Shown here piece by piece: positions 1-11,200 of a DNA stretch of 13,663 nucleotides. Each line of letters opens with the position of its first letter. Within the stretch, counting starts at the first letter, position 1. The stretch is from the NCBI GenBank assembly GCA_014730235.1, contig WJIO01000370.1:1-13663 (forward strand). The letters run 5' to 3'. Both the position numbers and the translations under genes were made by a program. The stretch is from Candidatus Poribacteria bacterium (GTDB taxonomy: Bacteria; Poribacteria; DTPJ01; WJIO01). The notes below the pieces were generated by a model. That model did no database searches. It had not been told where the DNA came from and worked only from the letters and a program-made list of their open reading frames with translations.

Positions 1-405
1 ATCAATAAGCTGTTGTGCATAGCCAATAGGTATTTTATACTTCATTCGAGTATGGGTCCAGGCCATAACTACAGGATCATCAATTGACGGTGTTTCTGAT
101 AATGAGCGTTTTTTCCATTCGTTTAAACCTGATTGCAAGTCACCCTCAGGTATATCCACCAGATCATCACTGATGCGGCAAAAAGAATATAAAGCCCTTG
201 CCGCCCGGCATTTTTCTCCCGGAAGTAAACTTGATGCCACATAAAAAGTGCGGCTGTGATGTTTTGTAAGTTTTCGGCAGTGTTCATAAGCCTCTTCCAG
301 AGCTAATCTGTCAACATCAATGAAGTTGAATTCAACATGCTCTTCAAAGGCCTTATAAGCCTTCTCCAGAAGCTTTTCTTCCCAGGAACATGTATATAGT
401 GTCAT
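1..405 (-). CDS. crtB: Phytoene synthase (squalene/phytoene synthase family), N-terminal 135 aa only. The gene continues beyond the window start. Its start ATG (405..403) overlaps the crtI stop (ATGA).
   Basis: Manual translation of the reverse strand gives MTLYTCSWEEKLLEKAYKAFEEHVEFNFIDVDRLALEEAYEHCRKLTKHHSRTFYVASSLLPGEKCRAARALYSFCRISDDLVDIPEG... This carries the hallmark SQS/PSY motifs (HSRTFY, LLPxxxRxAxxALYxFCRxxDDxVD). No in-frame stop occurs to position 1. The ORF is open-ended, so it is absent from the supplied track. Confidence 0.85.
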   Translation of the reverse strand, partial: MTLYTCSWEEKLLEKAYKAFEEHVEFNFIDVDRLALEEAYEHCRKLTKHHSRTFYVASSLLPGEKCRAARALYSFCRISDDLVDIPEGDLQSGLNEWKKRSLSETPSIDDPVVMAWTHTRMKYKIPIGYAQQLID

Positions 406-1934
406 CTCTCACTTTCTATTATTTTACCCGGAATGGATACAGATTTTTCAGGAACGCGCTGTTCCTTAAGAATCCGTTCCACAACAAGACGGGCTGATAT
501 TAATACCATAGGAAGTCCCCCGCCTGGGTGCGTGCTGGCTCCAACAAAGTAGAGGTTTTTATAACGGTCATGACGGTTATGAGGTCGTAAATATCCTACC
601 TGAAATAGGTTATGGCTGAGACCAAAGGCCGAACCTTTAGCCAGATTAAGATAATCTCTGTAATCTGTCGGTTCAATTATCTCTTCAAAAGCTATATACT
701 TTTCCAGATTTTTAATACCAATAGATTCCAGTTTTGCAAAGACTTTATTTCTGGCTTTATCCCGGATTGCATCCCAATCCTGGGGGGTTTCTTCGTTAAT
801 ATGACCTACTGGAACCAAGACCAGAAGGCTGTCACCATCCGGTGGAGCGCAGGAGTCATCGGTACGGGATGGGGAACATACATAAAACGAAGGATCATCA
901 GGCAAAGTCAAATCCCGGAAGATTTTATCAAAGGATTCCCGATAATTATTGTCGGCAAGAAATACGTTGTGATGTTGAAGCTGTTCCGGTCTTGTCCCCT
1001 TTATACCCCAATAAAACATTATGGCCGACGATGAATACTTTTTCCGATACAATCTTTTTGCTTTGTTTTTATCCGGCAGAAGTTCCGAATATACATAAGG
1101 TAAGTCTGCATTAGCTATAATGGCATCAGATTCAACTTTTTCACCGTTTTCCAGAGTTACACCTGTTGCCTTTGAACCTTCCACGTTGATTTTTGCCACC
1201 GATGAGTCATAATGAAACTTCACACCCAAGCCCTGGGCAATATCCGTCAGGGTTTCAACAACTTCATACATACCGCCCCGGGGATACCAAACACCCTGAA
1301 CCGCTTCGGTATATTGTAGAAGGGAATATGTGGCCATAGCATCATAAGGGCTAAGACCCAAATACATGTTTTGAAAGGAAAAGCCAGCCCGAAGGCGGGA
1401 GTCTTTGAAAAACTTTGATGTATTGTTGTAATGTTTCGCCAGTGCCTTTATGCGAATCACCAGTGGGAAGTTTGATGGACTCAGGTATTCCAGCCATGAC
1501 CTGAAGTTTCGACCTACAAAATGCTTTAATGACAGGTGATAATTACGGTAACCTTCTTCCGTAAATCTAAGGAAAGCCTCAAAAGAACCCGGTTCTATAG
1601 ACTCCAACTGGTCGAACATGCTTTTAAGATCACCAGTTATATTCAGCTTTGTTCCATCATGAAAATGCACCTTGTATGTAGGATCAATTCGGATTAAATC
1701 AAGATGGTCTTCCATATTTTCACCCAGGGATTCGTAAGTTTCAGCAAATATTTCTGGCATCAAAAAAAGAGTTGGTCCTGTGTCAAAGCGATGACCATCC
1801 CTCTCAATAATTCCAGTTCGTCCTCCAGGAATAGAATTTTTCTCTAAAATGGTAACTCTACATCCCAAACGAGCTAAACGTGCAGCAGTTGAAAGACCAC
1901 CAATCCCAGCGCCTATTACAATTGCTGTATTCAA
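402..1934 (-). CDS. crtI: Phytoene desaturase (CrtI-type FAD-dependent carotenoid desaturase), 510 aa. Uses a TTG start preceded by an AAGGAG SD.
   Basis: N-terminal Rossmann FAD motif IVIGAGIGGLSTAARLARLG. C-terminal CrtI-family signature YFVGASTHPGGGLPMVLISARLVVERI. Size typical of CrtI. The first codon is RC(1932..1934)=TTG. An upstream in-frame stop is close by, and the SD AAGGAG lies 8 nt upstream. The gene is coupled to crtB by an ATGA overlap. CrtD or CrtN-type desaturases cannot be excluded without a search. Confidence 0.85.
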   Translation of the reverse strand: MNTAIVIGAGIGGLSTAARLARLGCRVTILEKNSIPGGRTGIIERDGHRFDTGPTLFLMPEIFAETYESLGENMEDHLDLIRIDPTYKVHFHDGTKLNITGDLKSMFDQLESIEPGSFEAFLRFTEEGYRNYHLSLKHFVGRNFRSWLEYLSPSNFPLVIRIKALAKHYNNTSKFFKDSRLRAGFSFQNMYLGLSPYDAMATYSLLQYTEAVQGVWYPRGGMYEVVETLTDIAQGLGVKFHYDSSVAKINVEGSKATGVTLENGEKVESDAIIANADLPYVYSELLPDKNKAKRLYRKKYSSSAIMFYWGIKGTRPEQLQHHNVFLADNNYRESFDKIFRDLTLPDDPSFYVCSPSRTDDSCAPPDGDSLLVLVPVGHINEETPQDWDAIRDKARNKVFAKLESIGIKNLEKYIAFEEIIEPTDYRDYLNLAKGSAFGLSHNLFQVGYLRPHNRHDRYKNLYFVGASTHPGGGLPMVLISARLVVERILKEQRVPEKSVSIPGKIIESER

Positions 1935-2001
1935 TATAAATACTCCTTATATATGTTTCATAAGCAATTTCCAATTATATAGATGAGATTTTTTCTTGAT
2001 T

Positions 2002-2172
2002 GTAATCGTTAAAAAATGAAAAATGTGTTTAGAAAATACCTTTATAATCATGGTAAATTACAAAATTTGTCATTCCTGCGAAAGCAGGAATCCAGAAAAA
2101 ACTATCATGGGAGACTGGATTCCTGCTCTCGTAGAAATGACAACTAAATTATATCCATTTTTAAACGATTAC
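2002..2172 (+). mobile_element. Complete MITE-like miniature inverted-repeat element (repeat copy A), 171 bp. It has 14-bp terminal inverted repeats (gtaatcgttaaaaa / tttttaaacgattac) and is flanked by a perfect 6-bp direct repeat TTGATT (1996..2001 and 2173..2178).
   Basis: The TIRs and TSD are read directly from the sequence. Internally there is a GAAA-tetraloop hairpin at 2072..2091 (attcctgc-gaaa-gcaggaat) and a second degenerate hairpin half at 2113..2142. It is near-identical to the copies at 4263..4354 (inverted) and 7881..8010. Confidence 0.65.
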
Positions 2173-2211
2173 TTGATTAGACAATGTTTTTTACATTTCC
2201 ACACTCAAGTC

Positions 2212-3126
2212 TTAAAAACAAATTGCCAGGATAAAACTTACCGAAACACCCAGATTAATTATGAGAGTCTTTGCACATATATTTTCCAACGCTTTATGTT
2301 CTTTATAGTGCTTTTTAAATACCTGAATTATCGTTATCAAAGAAAGTATAAATACTGGCAGAAAAAAGATTAACGCTTTTAAAGGTATACCTGCCCAGAT
2401 AGCAATTAAATATGAAATCCAGATCCCTATACTGAATATAATATAAATCTTACTCATCTTTGACTTACCAAAGCGCACCACCAGGTTTTGCTTTCCTGTC
2501 CTTTTGTCGGCCAGATAATCCGGGAATTCATTAATTAATATCACATTAAATATAGAAAAGATAATAGGTAGTGATGTCCAGTGTATAATATTAGGAAATT
2601 TACCTGTCTGTAAATAGTAAGACGCAGCTACTGTAAGCCATCCATAACAAAAACCTATCCATATTTCTCCAAGTCCTTTATAAGCCCATTGCACAGGTTT
2701 TGCTGAATAAAACAACCCTCCCAAAATCCCGATTATCCCCAGAGGCAAAGTAAATGCGCCGGTATCATAATAAAAATGAAGTATAAATCCTATAACCAGC
2801 GCCGCAGAAACTGATACCAGAGAAGCGATCAAAGCATGATGTCGGGGTATCAATCCTGATTGTATTACCTGGCTGCCTCCTGTAAAGCGATTTCTACCCA
2901 GCTCTGATGAGAGGTTATCCGTTTCATAGTCGTAATATTCTCCTGAATAATAGGTTGCCGAAAGAATCAGAGCAACACACAGAGTTCCCCAGAATAAAAC
3001 TGTCCAGTCAATAACCCCTGTATTATACCAGGCCAGAACATTACCCAGTATAAATGGAAAAATTCCTACTGTGTGAAAAGGCAGTCTGGACAAAGTTATC
3101 CAGGCTTTCAGCTTTTTTATATTCAT
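2212..3126 (-). CDS. UbiA/MenA-superfamily membrane prenyltransferase, 304 aa. Possible lycopene-elongase-like or other isoprenoid prenyltransferase.
   Basis: Polytopic hydrophobic protein. The second Asp-rich motif NEFPDYLADKRTGKQNLVVRFG matches UbiA/MenA NxxxDxxxDxxxGKxTLAVRLG. The first motif region is GEYYDYETD (D/ExxDxxxD-like). The start ATG overlaps the idi-2 stop (ATGA). Confidence 0.8.
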   Translation of the reverse strand: MNIKKLKAWITLSRLPFHTVGIFPFILGNVLAWYNTGVIDWTVLFWGTLCVALILSATYYSGEYYDYETDNLSSELGRNRFTGGSQVIQSGLIPRHHALIASLVSVSAALVIGFILHFYYDTGAFTLPLGIIGILGGLFYSAKPVQWAYKGLGEIWIGFCYGWLTVAASYYLQTGKFPNIIHWTSLPIIFSIFNVILINEFPDYLADKRTGKQNLVVRFGKSKMSKIYIIFSIGIWISYLIAIWAGIPLKALIFFLPVFILSLITIIQVFKKHYKEHKALENICAKTLIINLGVSVSFILAICF

Positions 3127-4181
3127 TTTTTCACCAGATATTTTGTATTTCCCAGTTCCTTGAGGTTAGCTGAACCTGTGCAAAACATAGCAATCTTCAA
3201 TTCTTCAATTATTCTGTTCAGAACGTTTTCCACCAATAAAGGAGATTCCAGGGCTGGAGATAAAAGTGGTAGAGCAATACCTATCACCGAAGCTCCTAAA
3301 GCTATAGCCTTAGCTGCATCAACGCCGTTTCTTATACCTCCTGATGCTATAACAGGTATATCAGGAACAGCGGATTTAACCATATTTAAGCTTTCCGCCG
3401 TTGGTATACCCCAGTCGGAAAAGGTATCCCCTATAGTTCTTTGACAGTCGCTCTTTGCCCGGTAGGATTCGATCATAGCCCAGGATGTACCGCCCGCGCC
3501 GCCGATGTCAATACAGTCAACACCAGCGTCTACAAGTCTGGATGCAACCTCTTTTGATATCCCGCAACCTACCTCTTTGACAATAATAGGCATCTCTATC
3601 TTTCGCCGTAGCTTCTTAATATTTTCCAGCAATCCCCTGAAGTTGGTATTTCCTTCGTATTGTATGGCTTCCTGAAGGGGATTTAGATGGAGGGCCAAAG
3701 CATCAGCACCTATCATGGATATAGCATCGAGACAATTTTCATAATCAAAGCCATTATTAAGCTGAATAGCCCCAATATTTGCTATCAACAAAGCATCAGG
3801 CACTGTATGTCTTACCTGAAACGTATAGGCTAAAGACGGTTGTTCCAGTGATATTCTCTGGGAACCAACCATCATGCCTACCCGCAGTTTCTGGGCAGCT
3901 ATGGCCAGGTTCTCATTGATTTGAAAGCTCAGCTCCGTTCCGCCGGTCATAGATTCAATGATAACAGGATAATTCAGGACTTTGTCGAATAAATTAAGGG
4001 AAAGATCAATATCGCTCATATTAATATCCGGCAAAGCCTGGTGGATAAAGCTATAATTTTCAAAACCCGTTGATTTGTTCTTAAATCCAACATCCTCATT
4101 AAGGCATATACGGATATGATCGGCTTTTCTGTCCTGAGTCATCCTGTTGAATTTTGTTTCTCGGTCTTCTGAATTCCGCAT
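3123..4181 (-). CDS. fni: Isopentenyl-diphosphate delta-isomerase type 2 (FMN-dependent IDI-2), 352 aa.
   Basis: Diagnostic IDI-2 motifs are present: RKADHI, SMTGG, VGSQR, IVKEVGCGIS, DIGGAGGTSWAMIE and ASGGIRNGVDAAKAIALGA (TIM-barrel FMN enzyme). The SD GGAG lies upstream of the ATG. Confidence 0.9.
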   Translation of the reverse strand: MRNSEDRETKFNRMTQDRKADHIRICLNEDVGFKNKSTGFENYSFIHQALPDINMSDIDLSLNLFDKVLNYPVIIESMTGGTELSFQINENLAIAAQKLRVGMMVGSQRISLEQPSLAYTFQVRHTVPDALLIANIGAIQLNNGFDYENCLDAISMIGADALALHLNPLQEAIQYEGNTNFRGLLENIKKLRRKIEMPIIVKEVGCGISKEVASRLVDAGVDCIDIGGAGGTSWAMIESYRAKSDCQRTIGDTFSDWGIPTAESLNMVKSAVPDIPVIASGGIRNGVDAAKAIALGASVIGIALPLLSPALESPLLVENVLNRIIEELKIAMFCTGSANLKELGNTKYLVKK

Positions 4182-4262
4182 AAAATATACTCCGAGTTTT
4201 GACTTACATTTTTGGCTCTTCCGAATTGAGTGTAGAAATAATTTAAAAATTTTCTAAGCATA

Positions 4263-4354
4263 TCATTCCTGCTTTCGCAGGAATGACAAATTTTGTAATT
4301 TACCATCATTATAAAGGTATTTTCTAAACACATTTTCCATTTTTTAACGATTAC
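4263..4354 (-). repeat. Truncated copy B of the MITE-like repeat, in inverted orientation relative to copy A (TIR end at 4341..4354).
   Basis: The reverse complement of 4263..4354 matches 2002..2092 of copy A with only 2 mismatches over about 90 nt. This includes the shared aaaaatg duplication and the hairpin tcattcctgc-tttc-gcaggaatga (4263..4286). The distal TIR and TSD are absent. Confidence 0.6.
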
Positions 4355-4502
4355 TCAGAATATATTCTTTTGCTTGAGAAAGTATAGGTTGGGTCATGCC
4401 TGTAAAGCATAATTGGTTCACCAAAATAAATTCATTTTAAATGAATAATCAGCAAACCAGACCCAACAAATTACCTTCCTGTTAAATATTGCAAAGTAAT
4501 CT

Positions 4503-5303
4503 CTATTCAAATGTACATATAGCACCAGGGCGTTTAATTCTCAAAACTACTGTTTCAAACACCCGAAAGGGATGATCCATATCCTCAGCCCCGAGATAAG
4601 CAGTAGTTAGATCCTCTCCCACAACCAGGTCCATATTTTGTTTACCTGTAGCCACAATTATGGCCTGATCACCTTCTATTGCTGGTGATTGAAAAACACC
4701 TTCAGTCATCAATTCCTTGACCATAGCTATTTCAAGAACTCCGGTTCCTTCATACACTCGGTGCATCTTGGCATATAAAGAGGGGCTTACCACCATTGCA
4801 TAAGGACCATAAAAACCACCCGACATTAGCTTTTCCGTACCAGCTACCACATTCTGAAAAGCATTGCCGGTAACCTGCCAGTCCTTAACCTCTGCGGTTG
4901 TACGACCTTCGGCGTTTAACAGTCCTTCATAACCTTCCATACCATTGAAAACCATATTGTCTTCTTGCATAGCGCAATAAGCAGCCGCTCCGGCAGCAGG
5001 CCCTAGTTCCAGCGGAATACCATATACTTTCGCCGATTCAATATCCCGCCAGTGAAGTTTAAAATCTTTTTGTATCATGGGTATGGTGATATTTTCGCGC
5101 TTCTTAACAGCTATTTCACCTTCTTTAAAACCACCCATGGAAGGTTTTGGGACCACAGTAGCACCAGCACCCAAAGGCCCGGTAATGCCTATAAATCTGC
5201 GTCCAACCAGTCGCCTTCGTGCAGATTCCACCACAAGTTTATCTATTTTTTCCCAGTCTTCGCTGCTTAAAGGAGCATCATCTCTTGCAAGATAATCAGC
5301 CAT
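4503..5303 (-). CDS. Family-1 encapsulin nanocompartment shell protein (HK97-fold, linocin M18-like), 266 aa.
   Basis: It aligns by eye along its length to the Thermotoga maritima encapsulin. [37 protein letters not shown] matches [50 protein letters not shown] matches DGIEGPYTLVINT. The C-terminal [23 protein letters not shown] matches [23 protein letters not shown]. A strong SD GGAGGG is present. The start lies 1 nt after the upstream EncFtn stop. Confidence 0.9.
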   Translation of the reverse strand: [266 protein letters not shown]

Positions 5304-5304
5304 T

Positions 5305-5712
5305 TTATTCTCCCTCCGTTTTCTTTTCCTCTATAAGGCTTCCTACAGTCGAATCTGACTTCTCTTCTTCAGGTTCTGTGTTAGATTTTAATGATTCAAT
5401 CATTTCTTCAACCTCTTCATAACCTTCGTCATAGAATTTCTGTTCATCCGAGTCCAGTTCATGAAGCAGTCGGAGAAATTCACCGGCATGAACTCTCTCT
5501 TCGTCTGCAATATCTACAAGAACTTCTATAGCCAATTTGTTGTCCGTTGACTCCGCCAGTTGAATATAAAGCTGAACTGCTTCATATTCTGCGGAAATCA
5601 TAAATCTTATCGCCCTGATCAGTTCCTCATGAGTTAGTTTTCTGTCGTTTTTAAGCCCTGCGAATGCTGACCCAAAATCTGGCATTATAATACCTCCTTG
5701 AAACTCTTGCAT
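5305..5712 (-). CDS. Encapsulated ferritin-like protein (EncFtn/Flp) cargo, 135 aa, with an acidic C-terminal linker and a GSL-type encapsulin targeting peptide.
   Basis: Ferritin-like ExxH region AEYEAVQLYIQLAESTDNKLAIEVLVDIADEERVHAGEFLRLLHEL (EncFtn-type di-iron ligands). The C-terminal tail EPEEEKSDSTVGSLIEEKKTEGE contains a TVGSLI motif like known cargo-loading peptides. The gene sits immediately upstream of the encapsulin shell gene. The SD AGGAGG lies 7 nt upstream. Confidence 0.8.
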   Translation of the reverse strand: MQEFQGGIIMPDFGSAFAGLKNDRKLTHEELIRAIRFMISAEYEAVQLYIQLAESTDNKLAIEVLVDIADEERVHAGEFLRLLHELDSDEQKFYDEGYEEVEEMIESLKSNTEPEEEKSDSTVGSLIEEKKTEGE

Positions 5713-5726
5713 CTTTATAAAAATGC

Positions 5727-7301
5727 TTAATTCAAACGTTTTGTCATATTGACTATTCCCTGGCGCAGTTCATCTGGTTCAGGCATCTGATCTGTACGCA
5801 TTAATTCAGCAATAGCCGGCATATGAGCAATTTTACCTGCACCTGAGGCAGCCATAACTTTATCATTTTTAATGTAATAAGCCACAAAGTTACGCATTGA
5901 TGGTTTACCATGAAAAATTATTTCATCCCAATCTTTTGCATAACCTACATATCTTAGATTGACTCCCAGTTGGTTAGTCCAGAAAAATGGAATACTCCGG
6001 TATTCCGTCTCTTTACCAGCCATATTAAAGCCAGCCACCCGTCCAAGCTGTTCCGCCAGACGCCAATGCTCAATTCGAATTCTTTCCCCTGATCGCCAAT
6101 CTATAAAGCTTACTATATCCCCGGCTGCGTATATATCTTCAGTAACCTGAAAATGCTTATCTACTGTAACACTTCTATCTGGATTTAATTCCATATTTTT
6201 TAGAAAATCTGTAGCAGGACGAACCCCTACACCTGTTACCACAAAATCTGATTCAAGAGTTTCTCCGTTGTCCAGGACAACTTTCTCTACTGATTTATTA
6301 CCTTCAAATCGAGCCACTTTACGGCCAAGTTTAAATACTGTGCCGCTGTTTTCATGTATTTCTTTATACATACTCCCCACTTCAGCACCCAAAATTCTCT
6401 GGTAAGGTAATTCTTCCGGAGCTACAATAGTGATATAAAGTCCTTTTTCAGCTAAATTCGCTGAAATTTCCATACCGATAAAACTCGCCCCGATTATTAC
6501 CAGCTTAGCACCTTTTTGAGCAAGACTTCTGATTTTCAGAGAATTATCCGGATTTCTTAGGGTAATAACATTATCCAGACCTGCACCCGGTACATCAACT
6601 TCTCTTGGAATACTGCCCGGAGCCAAAAGAACCTTATCATATTTGAGATATTTTCCATTGTCAAGCATCAGCTTTTTGCTGTGCGCATCTACTCCAGTTA
6701 CATTATGACCTGTCAAAACTTCAATACCGTATTCCGAATAAAATTCTTCTGAACGCAGCATTTCCGGTTCTTGGTCTTCGCTTTTCAAAAAGCCTTTGCT
6801 TAAACCTGTTCTATCATAAGGTAAACGGCTTTCTTTTGTAAGCATAAGGATTTTTCCCTCAAATCCTCCTTGTCGCATAGCCTCTGCTGCTGTGGCTCCA
6901 GCCGCACCTGTTCCCACAATAATAAAGGTCTGTTTATCAGCGTCTGGATTATATTTTGCCATATCAGGATGACGAGTTTCCGAAGCATCTTCTTCCACAA
7001 TTACAATAACGTTATCATCTTCAATCCGCACATCAAATCGAGCCAGGGAATCCAGGGAAGGTGGTTCTTTAAGATCTCCCGTTACAACATCAAAACAGGC
7101 CTGATGCCATGGACAGCGTATGTGATGTTGGTGCAATACTCCCTCTTCCAACGGCGCGCCAAAGTGAGGGCATGTCGATCCAAGAGCATAAAAATTATTG
7201 TTATCCCGAACTAATAATACCTCTACTTCACCTACTAAAAATTCCTTCATTTCGCCATTTTCTAAATCTGTAGTTTTTGCTACAATCTTTTCAATCTTCA
7301 T
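5727..7301 (-). CDS. Rieske [2Fe-2S] domain fused to an FAD/NAD(P)-dependent pyridine-nucleotide-disulfide (ferredoxin-reductase/AIF-like) oxidoreductase, 524 aa.
   Basis: Rieske motif CPHFGAPLEEGVLHQHHIRCPWH (CxH-x16-CxxH) at residues 44-66. FAD GxGxxG motif FIIVGTGAAGATAAEA. NAD-binding motif LVIIGASFIGMEISANL. A conserved YAAGDIV and a ferredoxin-reductase-like C-terminal domain are present. SD AAGGAGGG. The stop lies 14 nt before the EncFtn start. Confidence 0.85.
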   Translation of the reverse strand: MKIEKIVAKTTDLENGEMKEFLVGEVEVLLVRDNNNFYALGSTCPHFGAPLEEGVLHQHHIRCPWHQACFDVVTGDLKEPPSLDSLARFDVRIEDDNVIVIVEEDASETRHPDMAKYNPDADKQTFIIVGTGAAGATAAEAMRQGGFEGKILMLTKESRLPYDRTGLSKGFLKSEDQEPEMLRSEEFYSEYGIEVLTGHNVTGVDAHSKKLMLDNGKYLKYDKVLLAPGSIPREVDVPGAGLDNVITLRNPDNSLKIRSLAQKGAKLVIIGASFIGMEISANLAEKGLYITIVAPEELPYQRILGAEVGSMYKEIHENSGTVFKLGRKVARFEGNKSVEKVVLDNGETLESDFVVTGVGVRPATDFLKNMELNPDRSVTVDKHFQVTEDIYAAGDIVSFIDWRSGERIRIEHWRLAEQLGRVAGFNMAGKETEYRSIPFFWTNQLGVNLRYVGYAKDWDEIIFHGKPSMRNFVAYYIKNDKVMAASGAGKIAHMPAIAELMRTDQMPEPDELRQGIVNMTKRLN

Positions 7302-7356
7302 TCTTCCCTCCTTAATGTATAAAGTTGTAAAACATTGTTATAAGAAATTCTACAAG

Positions 7357-7394
7357 TTCCCCTTCCCCAAAGGGGGATCAAGGGGATTTTTATT
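7357..7394 (+). terminator. GC-rich stem-loop (cccctt-cccc-aaa-gggg-gatc-aagggg) followed by ATTTTTATT. It is an intrinsic-terminator-like structure on the + strand, in the 5' leader region of the minus-strand Rieske operon.
   Basis: Read directly from the sequence. The nested stems are 6 bp and 4 bp, followed by a T-tract. No + strand gene ends here, so the function is uncertain. It could be a leader hairpin, an sRNA terminator, or an insulator against antisense transcription. Confidence 0.3.
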
Positions 7395-7442
7395 GAAGTT
7401 TATACTTTAGTATTTATTATCCGATTTATTAATCAATCTTCA

Positions 7443-7475
7443 TTAGTATAAAAAATTTATATATCGATTACAAGA
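7443..7475 (-). promoter_or_regulatory. Candidate sigma70-type promoter for the Rieske-EncFtn-encapsulin operon. On the minus strand it reads TTGTAA - 17 nt - TATACT.
   Basis: The reverse complement of 7441..7480 reads tttgttcTTGTAAtcgatatataaatttttTATACTaatg. The spacing and hexamers are consensus-like. Prediction by eye only. Confidence 0.25.
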
Positions 7476-7788
7476 ACAAACCACATTAAATCAGTTTTAT
7501 TTTATACGACCTATATATGCAAATGATATACCAAAAACTAAAAATACCCGTAAAAACAGGTTATAATTAATTTTGTAGGATTTTAGCACTTATATGTCTC
7601 TAATTATTTGAGTTATAATTTAGCAAATTTTGCTGTCAATATTTACCAAACAATTAATCAAAAGTGATTCTCCCGGATTTAGTGAAGTATTAACAGACCT
7701 GAGAATTCTAAAAATCTCTAAAACCAATTTTTATAAGAATTCAGCATAAAGAAACAGATGAAAAGGCTCAAAAAATATAGTTCCATGT

Positions 7789-7815
7789 CATTTCTACGAA
7801 GGCAGTAATGACAGC
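7789..7815 (+). repeat. Degenerate solo copy of the repeat-family hairpin (gtcatttctac-gaag-gcagtaatgac).
   Basis: It resembles the hairpin units of copies A, B and C (gtcattcctgc-gaaR-gcaggaatgac) with two stem mismatches. Confidence 0.35.
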
Positions 7816-7880
7816 CTGGTAACATTTTCATTTGCTCGTACCTCTTCAATCACTGCAACATCTGTTTTTAATTAATTTTA

Positions 7881-8010
7881 GTAATCGTTAAAAATGTGTT
7901 TAGAAAATACCTTTATAATGATGGTAAATTACAAAACTTGTCATTCCTGCGAAGGCAGGAATCCAGTAGATCCGCATAAAGACTGGATTTTTGCCTTCGC
8001 AGGAATGACA
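7881..8010 (+). repeat. Copy C of the MITE-like repeat, in the same orientation as copy A. It has the 5' TIR but lacks the 3' TIR. It contains an almost perfect 28-bp-arm palindrome (7939..7966 / 7982..8009) around a 15-nt loop.
   Basis: 7881..7965 matches copy A 2002..2093 except for a 7-nt indel (aaaaatg) and 3 substitutions. The arms gtcattcctgcgaaggcaggaatccagt and actggatttttgccttcgcaggaatgac are inverted complements with 2 mismatches. The loop sequence differs completely from copy A. Confidence 0.6.
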
Positions 8011-8060
8011 GCATAAAGAGGTTTCTTATCTTTACCACACCGAACTCGGAAGAACCAAAT
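8011..8060 (+). repeat. Direct repeat DR1 (about 48 nt). It is paired with DR2 at 8174..8222, with about 6 mismatches and 160 nt spacing.
   Basis: DR1 reads ataaagaGgtttcttatctttacCacacCgaacTcggaagaAccaAat and DR2 reads ataaagaAgtttcttatctttacTacacTgaacCcggaagaGccaTaaat. Both are read directly from the sequence. Confidence 0.5.
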
Positions 8061-8086
8061 TTATGATTGGATTTATTAACTTGCCG

Positions 8087-8130
8087 TTGACAAGGTCTTA
8101 ACAGCGTGTTATTCTGTTATTGCTTATAAT
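8087..8130 (+). promoter_or_regulatory. Candidate promoter for the alpha-2-macroglobulin gene. It has TTGACA (8087..8092), a 17-nt spacer and TATTCT (8110..8115). A perfect TATAAT lies at 8125..8130.
   Basis: Consensus-like hexamers read by eye, located between direct repeats DR1 and DR2 and 115-160 nt upstream of the ATG at 8246. Confidence 0.3.
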
Positions 8131-8173
8131 CCTTCATAAATAACTCACAAAAGTTAAGACAATAAATGGCTAA

Positions 8174-8222
8174 TAAAGAAGTTTCTTATCTTTACTACAC
8201 TGAACCCGGAAGAGCCATAAAT
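8174..8222 (+). repeat. Direct repeat DR2, the partner of DR1. It ends 9 nt before the GGGAGG SD of the A2M gene.
   Basis: See DR1. It overlaps the immediate 5' UTR of the A2M gene. Confidence 0.5.
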
Positions 8223-8245
8223 AATATTCAGGGAGGTACTTAAGA

Positions 8246-11200
8246 ATGGATCAGGACAAACAGCAATTATCAGAAGAGAATAGCAAAAAACCCAGGTTAA
8301 GCGTCGGGCTTTGGTTAGGTATAATTGCTGTATTACTGGCTGTTATCATTGCCGGTCTGGCCTATATCTGGGGAACACCGAGAGGCAAGATACCTGTTAC
8401 TATAGAAGACTTTGATCCTGAGGGTGAAATAACCAGAACCACAAATTTTACTGTGGAATTTTCACAGGATATGGTACCCGAAAATCAGGTAGATATACAG
8501 ATAGATAATTTACCCATTGAATTTTCACCGGAAATACCAGGTAAATTTCGATGGATAGCCAGAAATAAATTAAGATTTTTCCCTGAGATAACGTTAAAGC
8601 CATCAACTGAATATACAGCCAAAATCCTGCCTGAGATTTGCACAGTTGAGGGTATGTATCTGAAGGGTGACAGACGCTTTAGTTTTTATACTCAAAGATT
8701 TCGCGTCGATAATACATATTTTTCTTTTAATCTGGCCGATCCTGATGGTGACAAAATCAGAATTCTTGGCACAATTGAATTCAATTATGCTGTTAAAGCT
8801 GATGATTTAGCTGAAAATTTATCTCTGTCATTTGAAAATGGGCCTAAAATACCATATAAAGTCATAACTCCCGATTCTGGACTTGCCATTAAAATTGAAA
8901 CCGAATCCCTGGAACGGAACGAATCGGATAAAAACCTTCAGCTTAATATCTCCCAAAATTTAAAACCAATTGATGGAAATCTCGGTCTTTCCCAGGATTA
9001 TGTCCAGACCATAGTAATGAAAGCCAAAGAGGAATTAAAAGTTGAGGGTGTTTTTGCAGAACAAAGGGGTCAAAAAAGTTATATAAAAATAAGGTTTAGT
9101 TCCCCTGTATCTGTTGATATGGCAAAGCAGTTTATAACCCTTGAACCGAAAATGGAACATACAATTTCAACCAGCAGTTACAATTACGTGGAAATCAGTG
9201 GAAATTTTCAGGCTGGTAAAGGTTATACTGTAAATGTCAACAAAGGCATTATAGGTGTTGACGGCTCCCGGCTTAAAAGCGATTTCTCATCAAGGGTGGT
9301 AATGCAAAACCTGGAACCCAGTATAGGTTTTGTTGGCGATGGTATTTATCTTTCCAGGCAGGGAAATCTCAATATAGGTCTGTCAACTATAAATATCAAC
9401 GAAGTAGAAATAGAAATACAAAAGGTCTATGCTAATAACCTCATACACTTACTTCATACTAATACAGTAGAAAGAGATTATGGATGGTACAACCTTAATA
9501 ACCTGGGTAAGGTTGTAAATGAAAAAGAAATAAATATCGCATCCCGTCTTAACGAAGAAATTGTTACACCAATAAGTATGCGGGATTATCTAATGTCCGA
9601 AAGCAAAGGTATATTTGCTCTGATTGCTCGAAATGTTGAAAAACGTTGGCAATACAGCCGAAAGTGGGTAATGATTACGGATCTGGGTATAACCGTTAAA
9701 AATGCAGGTGGGGATTTCCTGATCTGGGTAAATTCCCTTTCATCCCTGGAGCCTGTGTCAAATGCTGAGATCACTTTATTAAGCCGTAATAACCAGATCA
9801 TGGGTACAAAATCAACAGATCAGGACGGCACAGCCGTTTTTAACTTATCTGAAAGCGTTATGGAGGAATTTGAACCATACCTGGTCACAGTCTCCCATGA
9901 AGGCGATCTGTCTTTTCTGGATATGGATCATCGAAGGGTAGACACCACAGACTATAATGTAGAAGGTAGACCCTACCTTCAGTATGGTTATGATGTCTTT
10001 ATATACGGAGATCGGGATATATACAGACCGGGAGAGACTGCCCATGTAGTGGCAGTTATTAGAGGAACAAAAACCTCAGTTCCCCCATCTTTTCCTCTTA
10101 AAATGGAAATCCTGGGCCCGGACAATCGCATATTTACCGAGTTGATGCAAAAGACCGGTGATGCAGGCGCATGTGAGTTTGATGTGGAATTTCCCAGCTA
10201 TGTAAAAACAGGGCGTTATACTGCCAGGGCTATTGTGGGTAAAGATAACGAAATTGGCCGGGGCTATTTCAGCGTGGAAGAATTCATGCCGGATCGTATT
10301 AAGGTTAAGGTAACCACCGATTCAGATTCCTATGAATTGGGGCAGGATGTCAAGGTAAATGTGGAAGCTGTTAATCTGTTCGGCCCTCCTGCCAGCGGCA
10401 GACAGCTGGAAGCCCGGGCAGAAATTATAAGCCATGATTTTTCTGTTCCTCAATGGAAGTCCTTCACATTCCGGGATTCCAGCAAAAGTTTTGATAAAAA
10501 GAGAATGGATCTGGGAAAGGCAACGCTGGATCAGAACGGAAAATATACATATAATATGAATATAAAGGACAATATCCAGCCTCCTTCATCCCTTCAGGCC
10601 AATATATCAGCTACGGTACTTGAACCCGGTGGGCGGGGGGTAACAGGTTATAAAACCGTTGATGTGCATCCCTACTCCCATTATGTAGGCATCAGGCGCA
10701 CAAAAGAAGGCTATGCGGATGTGGGCAAACCTGCTGAGATGGATTTTATTGCAGTTGATAAAAATGGTAAAGTTGCGCCGGGTAGACAATACGAGGTTTC
10801 ATGTTACCGGATAACATGGCATTCCATATTGCGGCGTGCAGGTCGCAGGGGTTACAGGTATGTATCAGAAAAACAGGAAAACCTTGTTAAATCCTTCCCC
10901 CTGCAATCAGGCGAAAGACCGACCAAATTCTCTTTTACTCCTGACGATTACGGTGAATACCGCGTAGCTATTAAAGACATTGAATCATCCGCTTCGGCGT
11001 CTATAAACTTCTACGCCTCCGGCTGGGGTTATGCTCCATGGGCAATGAATAAACCAGAAAGATTGGAGATCGATCTGGACAAAGAATCCTACAATGCGGG
11101 AGATACTGCCCAGGTGCAAATCCGATCCCCCTTTGCTGGTAAGCTTCTGCTTACAGTGGAAGGTGATAGGATACATCATCGCCAATCCGTTATTATGGAC

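Follow-up and report, generated by a model that had tools for sequence, protein, structure and literature searches.

A MITE-like element with NTS-like hairpins in a Poribacteria carotenoid locus: inverted copies around idi-2 and UbiA as probable independent insertions

Introduction

When inverted copies of a repeat bracket a pair of genes, it must be asked whether the genes move or turn between them as a unit, or whether the repeats arrived separately. This question is raised by a stretch of 13,663 nt, hereafter the window, that makes up the whole of contig WJIO01000370.1 in the short-read assembly of a metagenome-assembled genome (MAG) labelled Candidatus Poribacteria bacterium at NCBI. Two copies of a repeat, copies A and B, enclose the genes for a type 2 isopentenyl-diphosphate isomerase (idi-2) and a UbiA-family prenyltransferase, downstream of which lie carotenoid genes of the crtI and crtB type. 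A first-pass annotation of this DNA had suggested that the repeats could mediate inversion of the enclosed segment, or mark a composite cassette flanked by miniature inverted-repeat transposable elements (MITEs). Here we argue that the repeats are probably independent insertions of a small non-coding MITE-like element in an old carotenoid operon, and that the inverted bracket is incidental. The complete element measures 171 nt, is bounded by 17-nt terminal inverted repeats, and carries hairpins of the type of the Neisseria Transformation Sequence (NTS) and dRS3. The genes of the operon are as follows:

3123-4181, minus strand: idi-2, type 2 isopentenyl-diphosphate isomerase (TIGR02151, 426.6 bits against a cut-off of 281.3; Pfam FMN_dh)
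2212-3126, minus strand: UbiA-family prenyltransferase (PF01040, 102 bits; MBD3184334.1, GF312_18770)
402-1934, minus strand: crtI-family phytoene desaturase (TIGR02734, 501.5 bits), downstream of copy A in the same operon
1-399, minus strand: N-terminal part of a crtB-like phytoene/squalene-synthase-family gene, truncated by the contig end

The UbiA-family protein scores under every NCBIfam equivalog cut-off, which limits its assignment to the family level.

Results

The inverted repeat pair

The arms of the pair (2002-2091 and 4265-4354) were aligned by the repeat finder over 90 nt as 98% complementary, with 2173 nt between them, and a direct count gives 88 of 90 identical positions (97.8%). 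A match of this length and identity is beyond chance in 13.7 kb. Both measures bear out the inverted, ~98% identical copies of ~90 nt that the first-pass annotation had placed around idi-2/UbiA, and the recent common origin that it had proposed for them agrees with the 97.8% identity. The shared internal duplication that it had reported is recovered as a tandem AAAAATG in A and B that is missing from a third copy, C. Its limits for copy A (2002-2172) stand, whereas those for copy B (4263-4354) have to be split: the part shared with A is 4265-4354, and it is the hairpin stem that reaches 4263. Copy B is truncated, as had been said, but the cut point is not random, as B ends exactly in its single hairpin. 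Both differences between the A and B arms alter the amino acid in the element’s only long open frame. In the spacer between UbiA and crtI, copy A runs antisense to the operon, with its end 39 nt downstream of the UbiA stop codon; the end of the copy B hairpin is 81 nt upstream of the idi-2 ATG (4181). Beyond the features already described, the window contains copy C, a solo hairpin (7786-7809) and a second repeat, R2. The 20-nt hairpin core pattern has six matches in the window against 0.12 expected.

Anatomy of the complete element

The case for insertion begins with copy A, which has the following parts:

1996-2001, strand not applicable: TTGATT left flank, putative target-site duplication (junction comparison)
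2002-2172, plus strand: copy A, complete MITE-like element of 171 nt (repeat finder, alignment, folding)
2002-2018, plus strand: left terminal inverted repeat GTAATCGTTAAAAAATG (blastn 17 nt, 94%; outer stem of the fold)
2068-2095, plus strand: hairpin H1 TGTCATTCCTGCGAAAGCAGGAATCCAG, NTS/dRS3-like, 25/28 to the Neisseria NTS consensus
2115-2143, minus strand: hairpin H2, degenerate and NTS-like (repeat finder 29 nt, 90%; 6 mismatches to NTS)
2156-2172, plus strand: right terminal inverted repeat CATTTTTAAACGATTAC, pairing 16/17 with the left (fold and blastn)
2173-2178, strand not applicable: TTGATT right flank, putative target-site duplication (junction comparison)

The left part of the element is made up of one terminal inverted repeat and an AT-rich arm (GC 0.20), and the right end of a short arm with the other terminal inverted repeat. 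Between them lie H1 and then the inverted H2, which face each other as a convergent doublet across a 19-nt spacer. The folding energy of the element is -32.7 kcal/mol (z = -7.8) for single-stranded DNA and -66.5 kcal/mol (z = -10.5) for operon-strand RNA. The same 6-mer stands at both junctions, for which the empirical chance in the window is 4e-4 to 1.4e-3, and the TTGATT pair has the signature of a putative target-site duplication, seen in a single case. With its terminal inverted repeats and a 6-bp flanking duplication of its own, copy A supports the MITE-like character that had been ascribed to the copies from the outset. If copy A entered by insertion, the empty site would be expected to read ...CTTGATTAGAC..., and a partner insertion sequence would be expected to share the terminus GTAATCGTT.

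Two open reading frames (ORFs) begin inside the copies and are artefacts of the repeat. The first (2023-2373, plus strand, 116 codons) starts in copy A and runs antisense into UbiA; the second (4139-4333, minus strand, 64 codons) starts in copy B and runs into the idi leader. Element-born frames of these lengths are of the type that gene callers may report.

Composition and gene order in relatives

A composite cassette would have arisen if a transposase, acting on the outer left terminal inverted repeats (at 2002 and 4354), had moved idi-UbiA as a 2353-bp unit into the carotenoid cluster. The outer ends of 2002-4354 are indeed one terminal repeat in inverted orientation. However, the bases outside this unit differ, with TTGATT on the left and TCAGAA on the right, and there is no duplication around it, whereas copy A alone has one. 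The composition of the module equals that of its surroundings: its GC content is 0.37-0.43, compared with 0.40-0.45 in the other genes, its GC content at third codon positions is 0.33-0.40, compared with 0.28-0.39, and its codon-usage distance and tetranucleotide correlations lie within the range of the other genes. The comparison of GC and codon signature that had been advised for idi-UbiA thus finds the composition of the module to be like that of its flanks and not foreign.

Relatives that possess the module have it in the same place. In L001 (ENA) and L016/L017 (JGI), idi-2, UbiA, crtI and crtB are contiguous, with the same order and orientation as in the window; L016 and L017 carry an identical UbiA protein, so that these three contigs represent two independent relatives. 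Their UbiA-crtI gaps measure 39 and 28 bp and are without hairpins or the element, while the gap in the window is 277 bp, or 100 bp when copy A and one TTGATT are subtracted. The protein identities are:

idi: window versus L001/L016, 67-70%; L001 versus L016, 85%
UbiA: window versus L001/L016, 60-62%; L001 versus L016, 77%
crtI: window versus L001/L016, 69-70%; L001 versus L016, 84%
crtB (first 133 residues): window versus L001/L016, 53%; L001 versus L016, 66%

The four genes diverge proportionally, which argues that idi-UbiA has travelled with crtI-crtB since their common ancestor. Other relatives are arranged differently. In L066 (a Poribacteria MAG, GCA_042571955.1) and L067, an orthologue of the Rieske reductase that lies upstream in the window (63-64% identity) precedes crtI-crtB, and idi-UbiA is not there; the Rieske-crtI gap is 70 bp in L066 and holds one intervening gene in L067. 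This absence at the matching position speaks for a mobile cassette, but no repeats or hairpins were found at the L066 and L067 sites. In all four of L001, L016, L066 and L067, the crtB-like orthologue comes after crtI. In a neighbour-joining tree of crtI the window branches first, then L066, then L067, and then L001 with L016. Only the proportional divergence favours loss of idi-UbiA, or its relocation elsewhere, in the loci that lack it. The idi-UbiA pair is an evolutionarily variable part of the cluster, and because no repeat lies at the L066/L067 sites, this variability is independent of the element.

The gene-order comparison that had been proposed as a check therefore cuts both ways, with the module in place in L001 and L016/L017 where no repeats occur, and with the module itself variable and missing from L066 and L067. 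Given the unequal outer flanks, native composition, repeat-free synteny and proportional divergence, we consider it very improbable that idi-UbiA is the composite, MITE-flanked mobilisable cassette that the first-pass annotation had envisaged.

Among relatives, the carotenoid locus varies in the part that separates the Rieske/FAD reductase from crtI (L066, 6353-9476; L067, 3699-9536; L016, 1651-10515; window, 402-7301). This part contains no gene in L066, one aldo-keto reductase in L067, eight genes ending with polyprenyl synthase, idi and UbiA in L016, and EncB, encapsulin, idi and UbiA in the window. UbiA homologues of ~62% identity are paired with a downstream radical SAM/SPASM gene in L002, L003, L004 and L065, which belong to other lineages and include a MAG labelled Chloroflexi; for this prenyltransferase subfamily, that is a second conserved association, unlike the one in the window. 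No closer relatives were found in the protein collection, in which the best matches reach 67% for UbiA and 70-71% for CrtI, and L068 is uninformative, as its crtI lies at the contig end.

Inversion of the bracketed segment

The arms might alternatively recombine with each other, through RecA or a dedicated recombinase, and flip idi-UbiA (2092-4264), which would uncouple crtI-crtB from the upstream promoter and make carotenoid synthesis heterogeneous within the population. Inversion by homologous recombination between the arms would be possible in principle: they are 97.8% identical and inverted around genes, and in Neisseria gonorrhoeae, blocks of the chromosome have been inverted by homologous recombination between Correia (MITE-like) elements and between other repeat-enclosed elements (PMC3454330). 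However, a Pfam scan found no recombinase or invertase gene among the long ORFs of the window, and the arms belong to a dispersed family, with copies also at 7880-8010 and on another contig, rather than to a locus-specific pair. The assembled orientation is the ancestral co-directional order seen in relatives, and a flip of 2092-4264 would split the four-gene operon. In addition, 90 nt is short for efficient RecA-dependent exchange. We regard a switch of this kind as quite improbable, if slightly less so than the cassette.

Further copies and mosaic structure

The remaining repeats point to a family whose members break and join at hairpins. They are:

4265-4354, minus strand: copy B, with left terminal inverted repeat, left arm and one hairpin (97.8% identity to A)
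~7880-8010, plus strand: copy C, with left terminal inverted repeat, left arm, H1 (7939-7966), spacer and H2 (7983-8010) (repeat finder 96%, 97%)
7786-7809, strand not assigned: degenerate solo hairpin TGTCATTTCTACGAAGGCAGTAATGACA (repeat finder, pattern scan)
4208-4256, minus strand: R2a, second repeat of ~50 nt, abutting the copy B hairpin (repeat finder; 64-72% to other R2)
8013-8068, plus strand: R2b, directly after H2 of copy C (repeat finder)
8173-8228, plus strand: R2c (repeat finder, 82%)

Copy B has no spacer, no H2 and no right terminal repeat. Its hairpin, TCATTCCTGC GAAA GCAGGAATGA, has a stem of 10 pairs at 4263-4286 in the terminator scan and 12 pairs at 4261-4288 in the RNA fold (z = -3.7); the left flank of this hairpin is of H1 type, the right flank is an H2-type end, and R2a follows immediately. 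Copy C, which is likewise without the right terminal repeat, has a spacer of 14-16 nt, depending on the arm limits, and a left arm and H1 that are 96-97% identical to the others except for an 8-nt indel, which is the AAAAATG duplication. Past the end of H1, identity falls steeply: the left arm and H1 are 96-98% alike among copies, H2 is 76% alike between A and C, the spacers are unrelated, and the R2 copies are 64-84% alike. Since the R2 copies are so much less alike than the left halves, they are far older. R2 has the core CTACAC..GAA..CGGAAGARCCA. R2a ends 27 nt before the idi-2 ATG and R2c 18 nt before the ATG (8246) of an alpha-2-macroglobulin gene, both pointing to the gene, and R2 may be a promoter or a 5' leader/regulatory module; folding found no RNA structure in R2 beyond that of shuffled sequences. 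Non-coding DNA occurs only at 1935-2211, 4182-4502 and 7302-8245 (1542 nt, 11% of the window, GC 0.28-0.31), and all six hairpins lie within it.

A six-frame translated search revealed a fourth copy on another Poribacteria contig, in addition to the three in 13.7 kb. It forms the N-terminus of P0121 (MBD3182640.1), annotated as a TPR lipoprotein, which reads MKNMFRKHLYDYGKLQNLSSLRKQESRKN...WISAFAGMTTKLYLFFNDY and is a diverged translation of the entire element with both of its ends, the right end appearing as the peptide TTKLYLFFNDY. The contig that encodes P0121 is 44 kb long, carries the label Candidatus Poribacteria bacterium and is probably from the same MAG, because the P0121 accession is 1694 numbers away from that of the window UbiA. 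Full terminal inverted repeats are thus present only in copy A and, by peptide, in the P0121 copy, while B and C keep the left one. As the P0121 copy includes both ends, the 171-nt unit has been copied whole at least twice. Since the first ~55 residues of P0121 are translated repeat, its start codon has probably been mis-called, and the true start is likely near IIFLVLFLQAC (lipoprotein signal).

A contig that crosses repeats of this length might itself be at fault, through a misjoin or a mis-oriented segment at the repeat copies. The short-read MAG contig of 13.7 kb does cross three copies of a repeat of at least 90 nt; however, the order UbiA to crtI across copy A is that of the relatives, the carotenoid cluster also has the upstream Rieske reductase as a conserved neighbour in L016, L066 and L067, and the genes of the segment are all co-directional and intact. 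An artefact as the source of the whole arrangement is therefore most improbable, on a par with the cassette.

Several points nevertheless weigh against independent insertion into an inherited operon. With idi-UbiA missing in both L066 and L067, two gains are, on the crtI tree, as parsimonious as two losses. Both ends are readable as DNA in copy A only, so that the evidence for the duplication is one case, and TTGATT could instead belong to the right end or mark a preferred target; the peptide at the right flank of the P0121 copy (F-I) is compatible with TTyATh. No partner transposase is known for the element. Finally, the assembly spans three repeat copies, and a misjoin at copy B is possible.

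The NTS/dRS3-like hairpin core

The NTS is a 28-nt sequence, CGTCATTCCCGCGMAVGCGGGAATCYRG, that contains dRS3 and is bound and cut by the GIY-YIG nuclease SsnA solely as single-stranded DNA; cutting and binding both depend critically on its 5' GTCAT and on the C that follows the palindrome (PMC11893778). Many bacteria have NTS-like motifs on the flanks of their ssn genes, and Ssn homologues are abundant in Pseudomonadati, with a wider sample that covers four phyla (PMC11893778). H1 of copies A and C (TGTCATTCCTGCGAARGCAGGAATCCAG, at 2068-2095 and 7939-7966) has three mismatches to the NTS, for which the chance expectation is 0.00. The differences lie at the first base and in one compensatory change of a stem pair from C:G to T:A. 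Both of these H1 hairpins keep GTCAT and the C, as do both H2 hairpins on the other strand, while the copy B hairpin (with G after the palindrome) and the solo hairpin do not keep both.

Published definitions of these motifs were each compared with the window. The exact dRS3 pattern ATTCCC-N8-GGGAAT does not occur, the window having ATTCCT-N8-AGGAAT instead; against the NTS limit of at most one mismatch (PMC11893778), the best hairpin has three; and the published degenerate SRM pattern has no match in the window, either exact or with one substitution. With two substitutions allowed, SRM matches H1 of A and C, but also ~14 unrelated places in the window, and we give this no weight; by hand alignment, the SRM substitutions in H1 sit on two paired stem positions. 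As the dRS3, NTS and SRM definitions all fail, we call the window hairpins NTS-like and do not claim membership for them.

The hairpins could nonetheless be functional sites, recognised by an Ssn-type GIY-YIG nuclease or a dRS3-type recombinase and modulating single-stranded DNA recombination around idi-UbiA, in the manner of the NTS-gene-NTS arrangements of Neisseria. This reading is compatible with independent insertion of the element. The match of H1 to NTS (25/28), with GTCAT and the 3' C conserved, would suit such a role, as would the clustered and strictly intergenic placement of the hairpins, the modularity of hairpins and AT-rich blocks, which resembles the Neisseria intergenic mosaic elements (NIMEs), and the variability of the Rieske reductase-crtI region among relatives. 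On the other hand, the hairpins fall outside the one-mismatch NTS limit and the SRM pattern, the copy B hairpin is without the 3' C, and no hairpins occur in the relatives, whether they have the module or not. A Pfam scan of the long ORFs found no GIY-YIG gene in the window. Nor was a GIY-YIG ORF found in the hairpin-bearing IMG/VR loci described below, where the pattern used was too strict and would miss typical members; their ORF lists show nothing obvious. That the hairpins are working sites for an Ssn-like nuclease or dRS3-like recombinase, in a NIME-like mosaic array outside Neisseria, is on the sequence evidence a doubtful proposition, though a less remote one than cassette, inversion or misassembly.

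Distribution of the element and its core

The hairpin core extends far beyond the element. IMG/VR has 15 stretches in which its 23-nt form recurs exactly amid unrelated flanks, and a variant hairpin frequently stands opposite it to make a convergent doublet. In the predicted viral contigs L018-L032, the core GTCATTCCTGCGAARGCAGGAAT(CCAG) lies between genes, for example at 6423-6479 and 9843-9900 in L024, and its copies in L030 (56-900) make up a short array, with proline-rich-looking repeats in between. The parts outside the hairpins gave a different picture. The element-specific 20-mer TTAGAAAATACCTTTATAAT returned only chance matches of 20-22 nt from the genome_contigs and metagenome_contigs collections, which evidently do not include the source MAG. 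The 31 IMG/VR matches of the 17-nt terminal repeat all fall within a few conserved phage gene families and amount to chance, and the left-arm/hairpin junction pattern had no match in IMG/VR. In these searches no source other than this MAG has so far yielded the left arm and termini, whereas the hairpin is a widespread module.

Apart from P0121, the only matches of the six-frame peptide search were generic hairpin peptides such as CHSCESRNP, WIPAFAGMT and SFLRKQES, which unrelated organisms carry in spurious ORFs; no literature on these three peptides was found. No Rfam family matched the element at the gathering score, and we set aside weak matches to FtrB, WsnRNA46 and miRNA precursors as those of a generic long hairpin. 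The sub-threshold WsnRNA46 (Wolbachia) and FtrB (Francisella) matches lie at 7918-8027 and 4180-4309, with 28-31 bits against gathering scores of 65-66; these two families may themselves hold NTS-like hairpins. Promoter and terminator matches in 1800-4600 were no more numerous than in shuffled sequences.

Surrounding genes

All genes from 7301 down to 1 are on the minus strand. The neighbours of the carotenoid genes are:

5727-7301, minus strand: Rieske/FAD reductase (window gene map, Pfam scan)
5305-5712, minus strand: EncB-type ferritin-like encapsulin cargo (profile evidence)
4503-5303, minus strand: family-1 encapsulin shell protein (profile evidence)
start at 8246, plus strand: bacterial alpha-2-macroglobulin gene (Pfam scan)

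The Rieske/FAD reductase, EncB-type cargo and family-1 encapsulin (4503-7301, minus strand) form an apparent operon directly upstream of the carotenoid genes. The intergenic region 7302-8245 (944 nt) is very AT-rich (GC 0.25-0.31). It contains short repeats (7543-7574 with 7848-7879; 7412-7432 with 8059-8079) and a GC-rich palindrome, CCCCTTCCCCAAAGGGGGATCAAGGGG, at ~7360-7386.

Discussion

We propose that copy A inserted alone into the UbiA-crtI spacer of an inherited idi-2/UbiA/crtI/crtB operon and in doing so would have duplicated 6 bp of target, transposition being the presumed means of spread. Copies B and C would be mosaic derivatives, in which young copies of the element landed beside resident hairpin and R2 modules. 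The most likely cause of their present form is deletion or exchange at the palindromic hairpins, which would have removed the right part and joined a young left half to an older R2. The inverted arrangement of A and B would then be a by-product of two separate insertions into the sole non-coding DNA on offer. Once in place between UbiA and crtI, the RNA fold of copy A (-66.5 kcal/mol) might alter processing of the transcript or polarity.

As a family, the repeats are new and locally private; in kind they are familiar, being MITE-like, with NTS/dRS3-type hairpins and mosaic derivatives. Like bacterial MITEs and Correia elements, the element is short (171 nt), non-coding, intergenic and multi-copy, with terminal inverted repeats, a short flanking duplication at copy A and a strong fold-back. 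Correia elements within operon transcripts create promoters and RNase III sites (PMC2649163), and copy A also lies within an operon transcript; inverted Correia copies can moreover be substrates for inversion (PMC3454330). The two differ in that there is no sequence similarity, that the duplication here is the 6-bp TTGATT rather than TA, and that the interior here is made up of NTS-like hairpins, with only two full-length copies documented and no known partner transposase.

With NTS, dRS3 and SRM the element shares an oriented 28-nt hairpin that is intergenic, clustered near genes, and found as a core in many unrelated contigs; it departs from them in its ATTCCT...AGGAAT arms, its host, a Poribacteria MAG, and the placement of hairpins inside a unit bounded by terminal inverted repeats. 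NIMEs consist of repeat modules of many families set apart by 20-bp dRS3 palindromes, and they had not been observed outside Neisseria as of 2007 (PMC1797815). The window has a similar alternation of GC-richer palindromes (0.35-0.50) and AT-rich modules of 16-66 nt (GC 0.20-0.38), with left arm, spacers and R2 shuffled between loci and identity breaking exactly at palindromes. Unlike NIMEs, it has at most three hairpins per intergenic region, and one of its units, copy A, has terminal inverted repeats at its ends and a direct duplication on either side; NIME units have neither.

The convergent doublets of imperfect palindromes, which form long intergenic hairpins, also recall REP, BIME and REPIN sequences, and the paper on Ssn itself likens NTS to REP-type elements (PMC11893778). 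The element differs from REP/REPIN in adding asymmetric arms and terminal inverted repeats, and no RAYT gene is seen in the window. To our knowledge, the element has no GTAG-type REP head. Invertons and shufflons, too, have inverted repeats around a DNA segment, but here there is no adjacent invertase, the arms are a dispersed repeat, and the cargo consists of two complete mid-operon biosynthetic genes rather than a promoter or alternative gene ends.

These results are corrective in that the bracketing repeats are no evidence for a mobile or phase-variable idi-2/UbiA cassette. Elements of this sort yield spurious ORFs and mis-called starts, such as the N-terminus of MBD3182640.1, and are likely break points in MAG assemblies. 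The element also extends the range and contexts of Ssn-linked hairpins to a Poribacteria MAG, to a stem with one compensatory change, and to a setting in which terminal inverted repeats enclose the hairpin in a unit that is itself shuffled among other modules. Were the less likely functional role to prove true, the hairpins would promote or police recombination around idi-UbiA, which would explain why the Rieske-crtI stretch is so variable among relatives.

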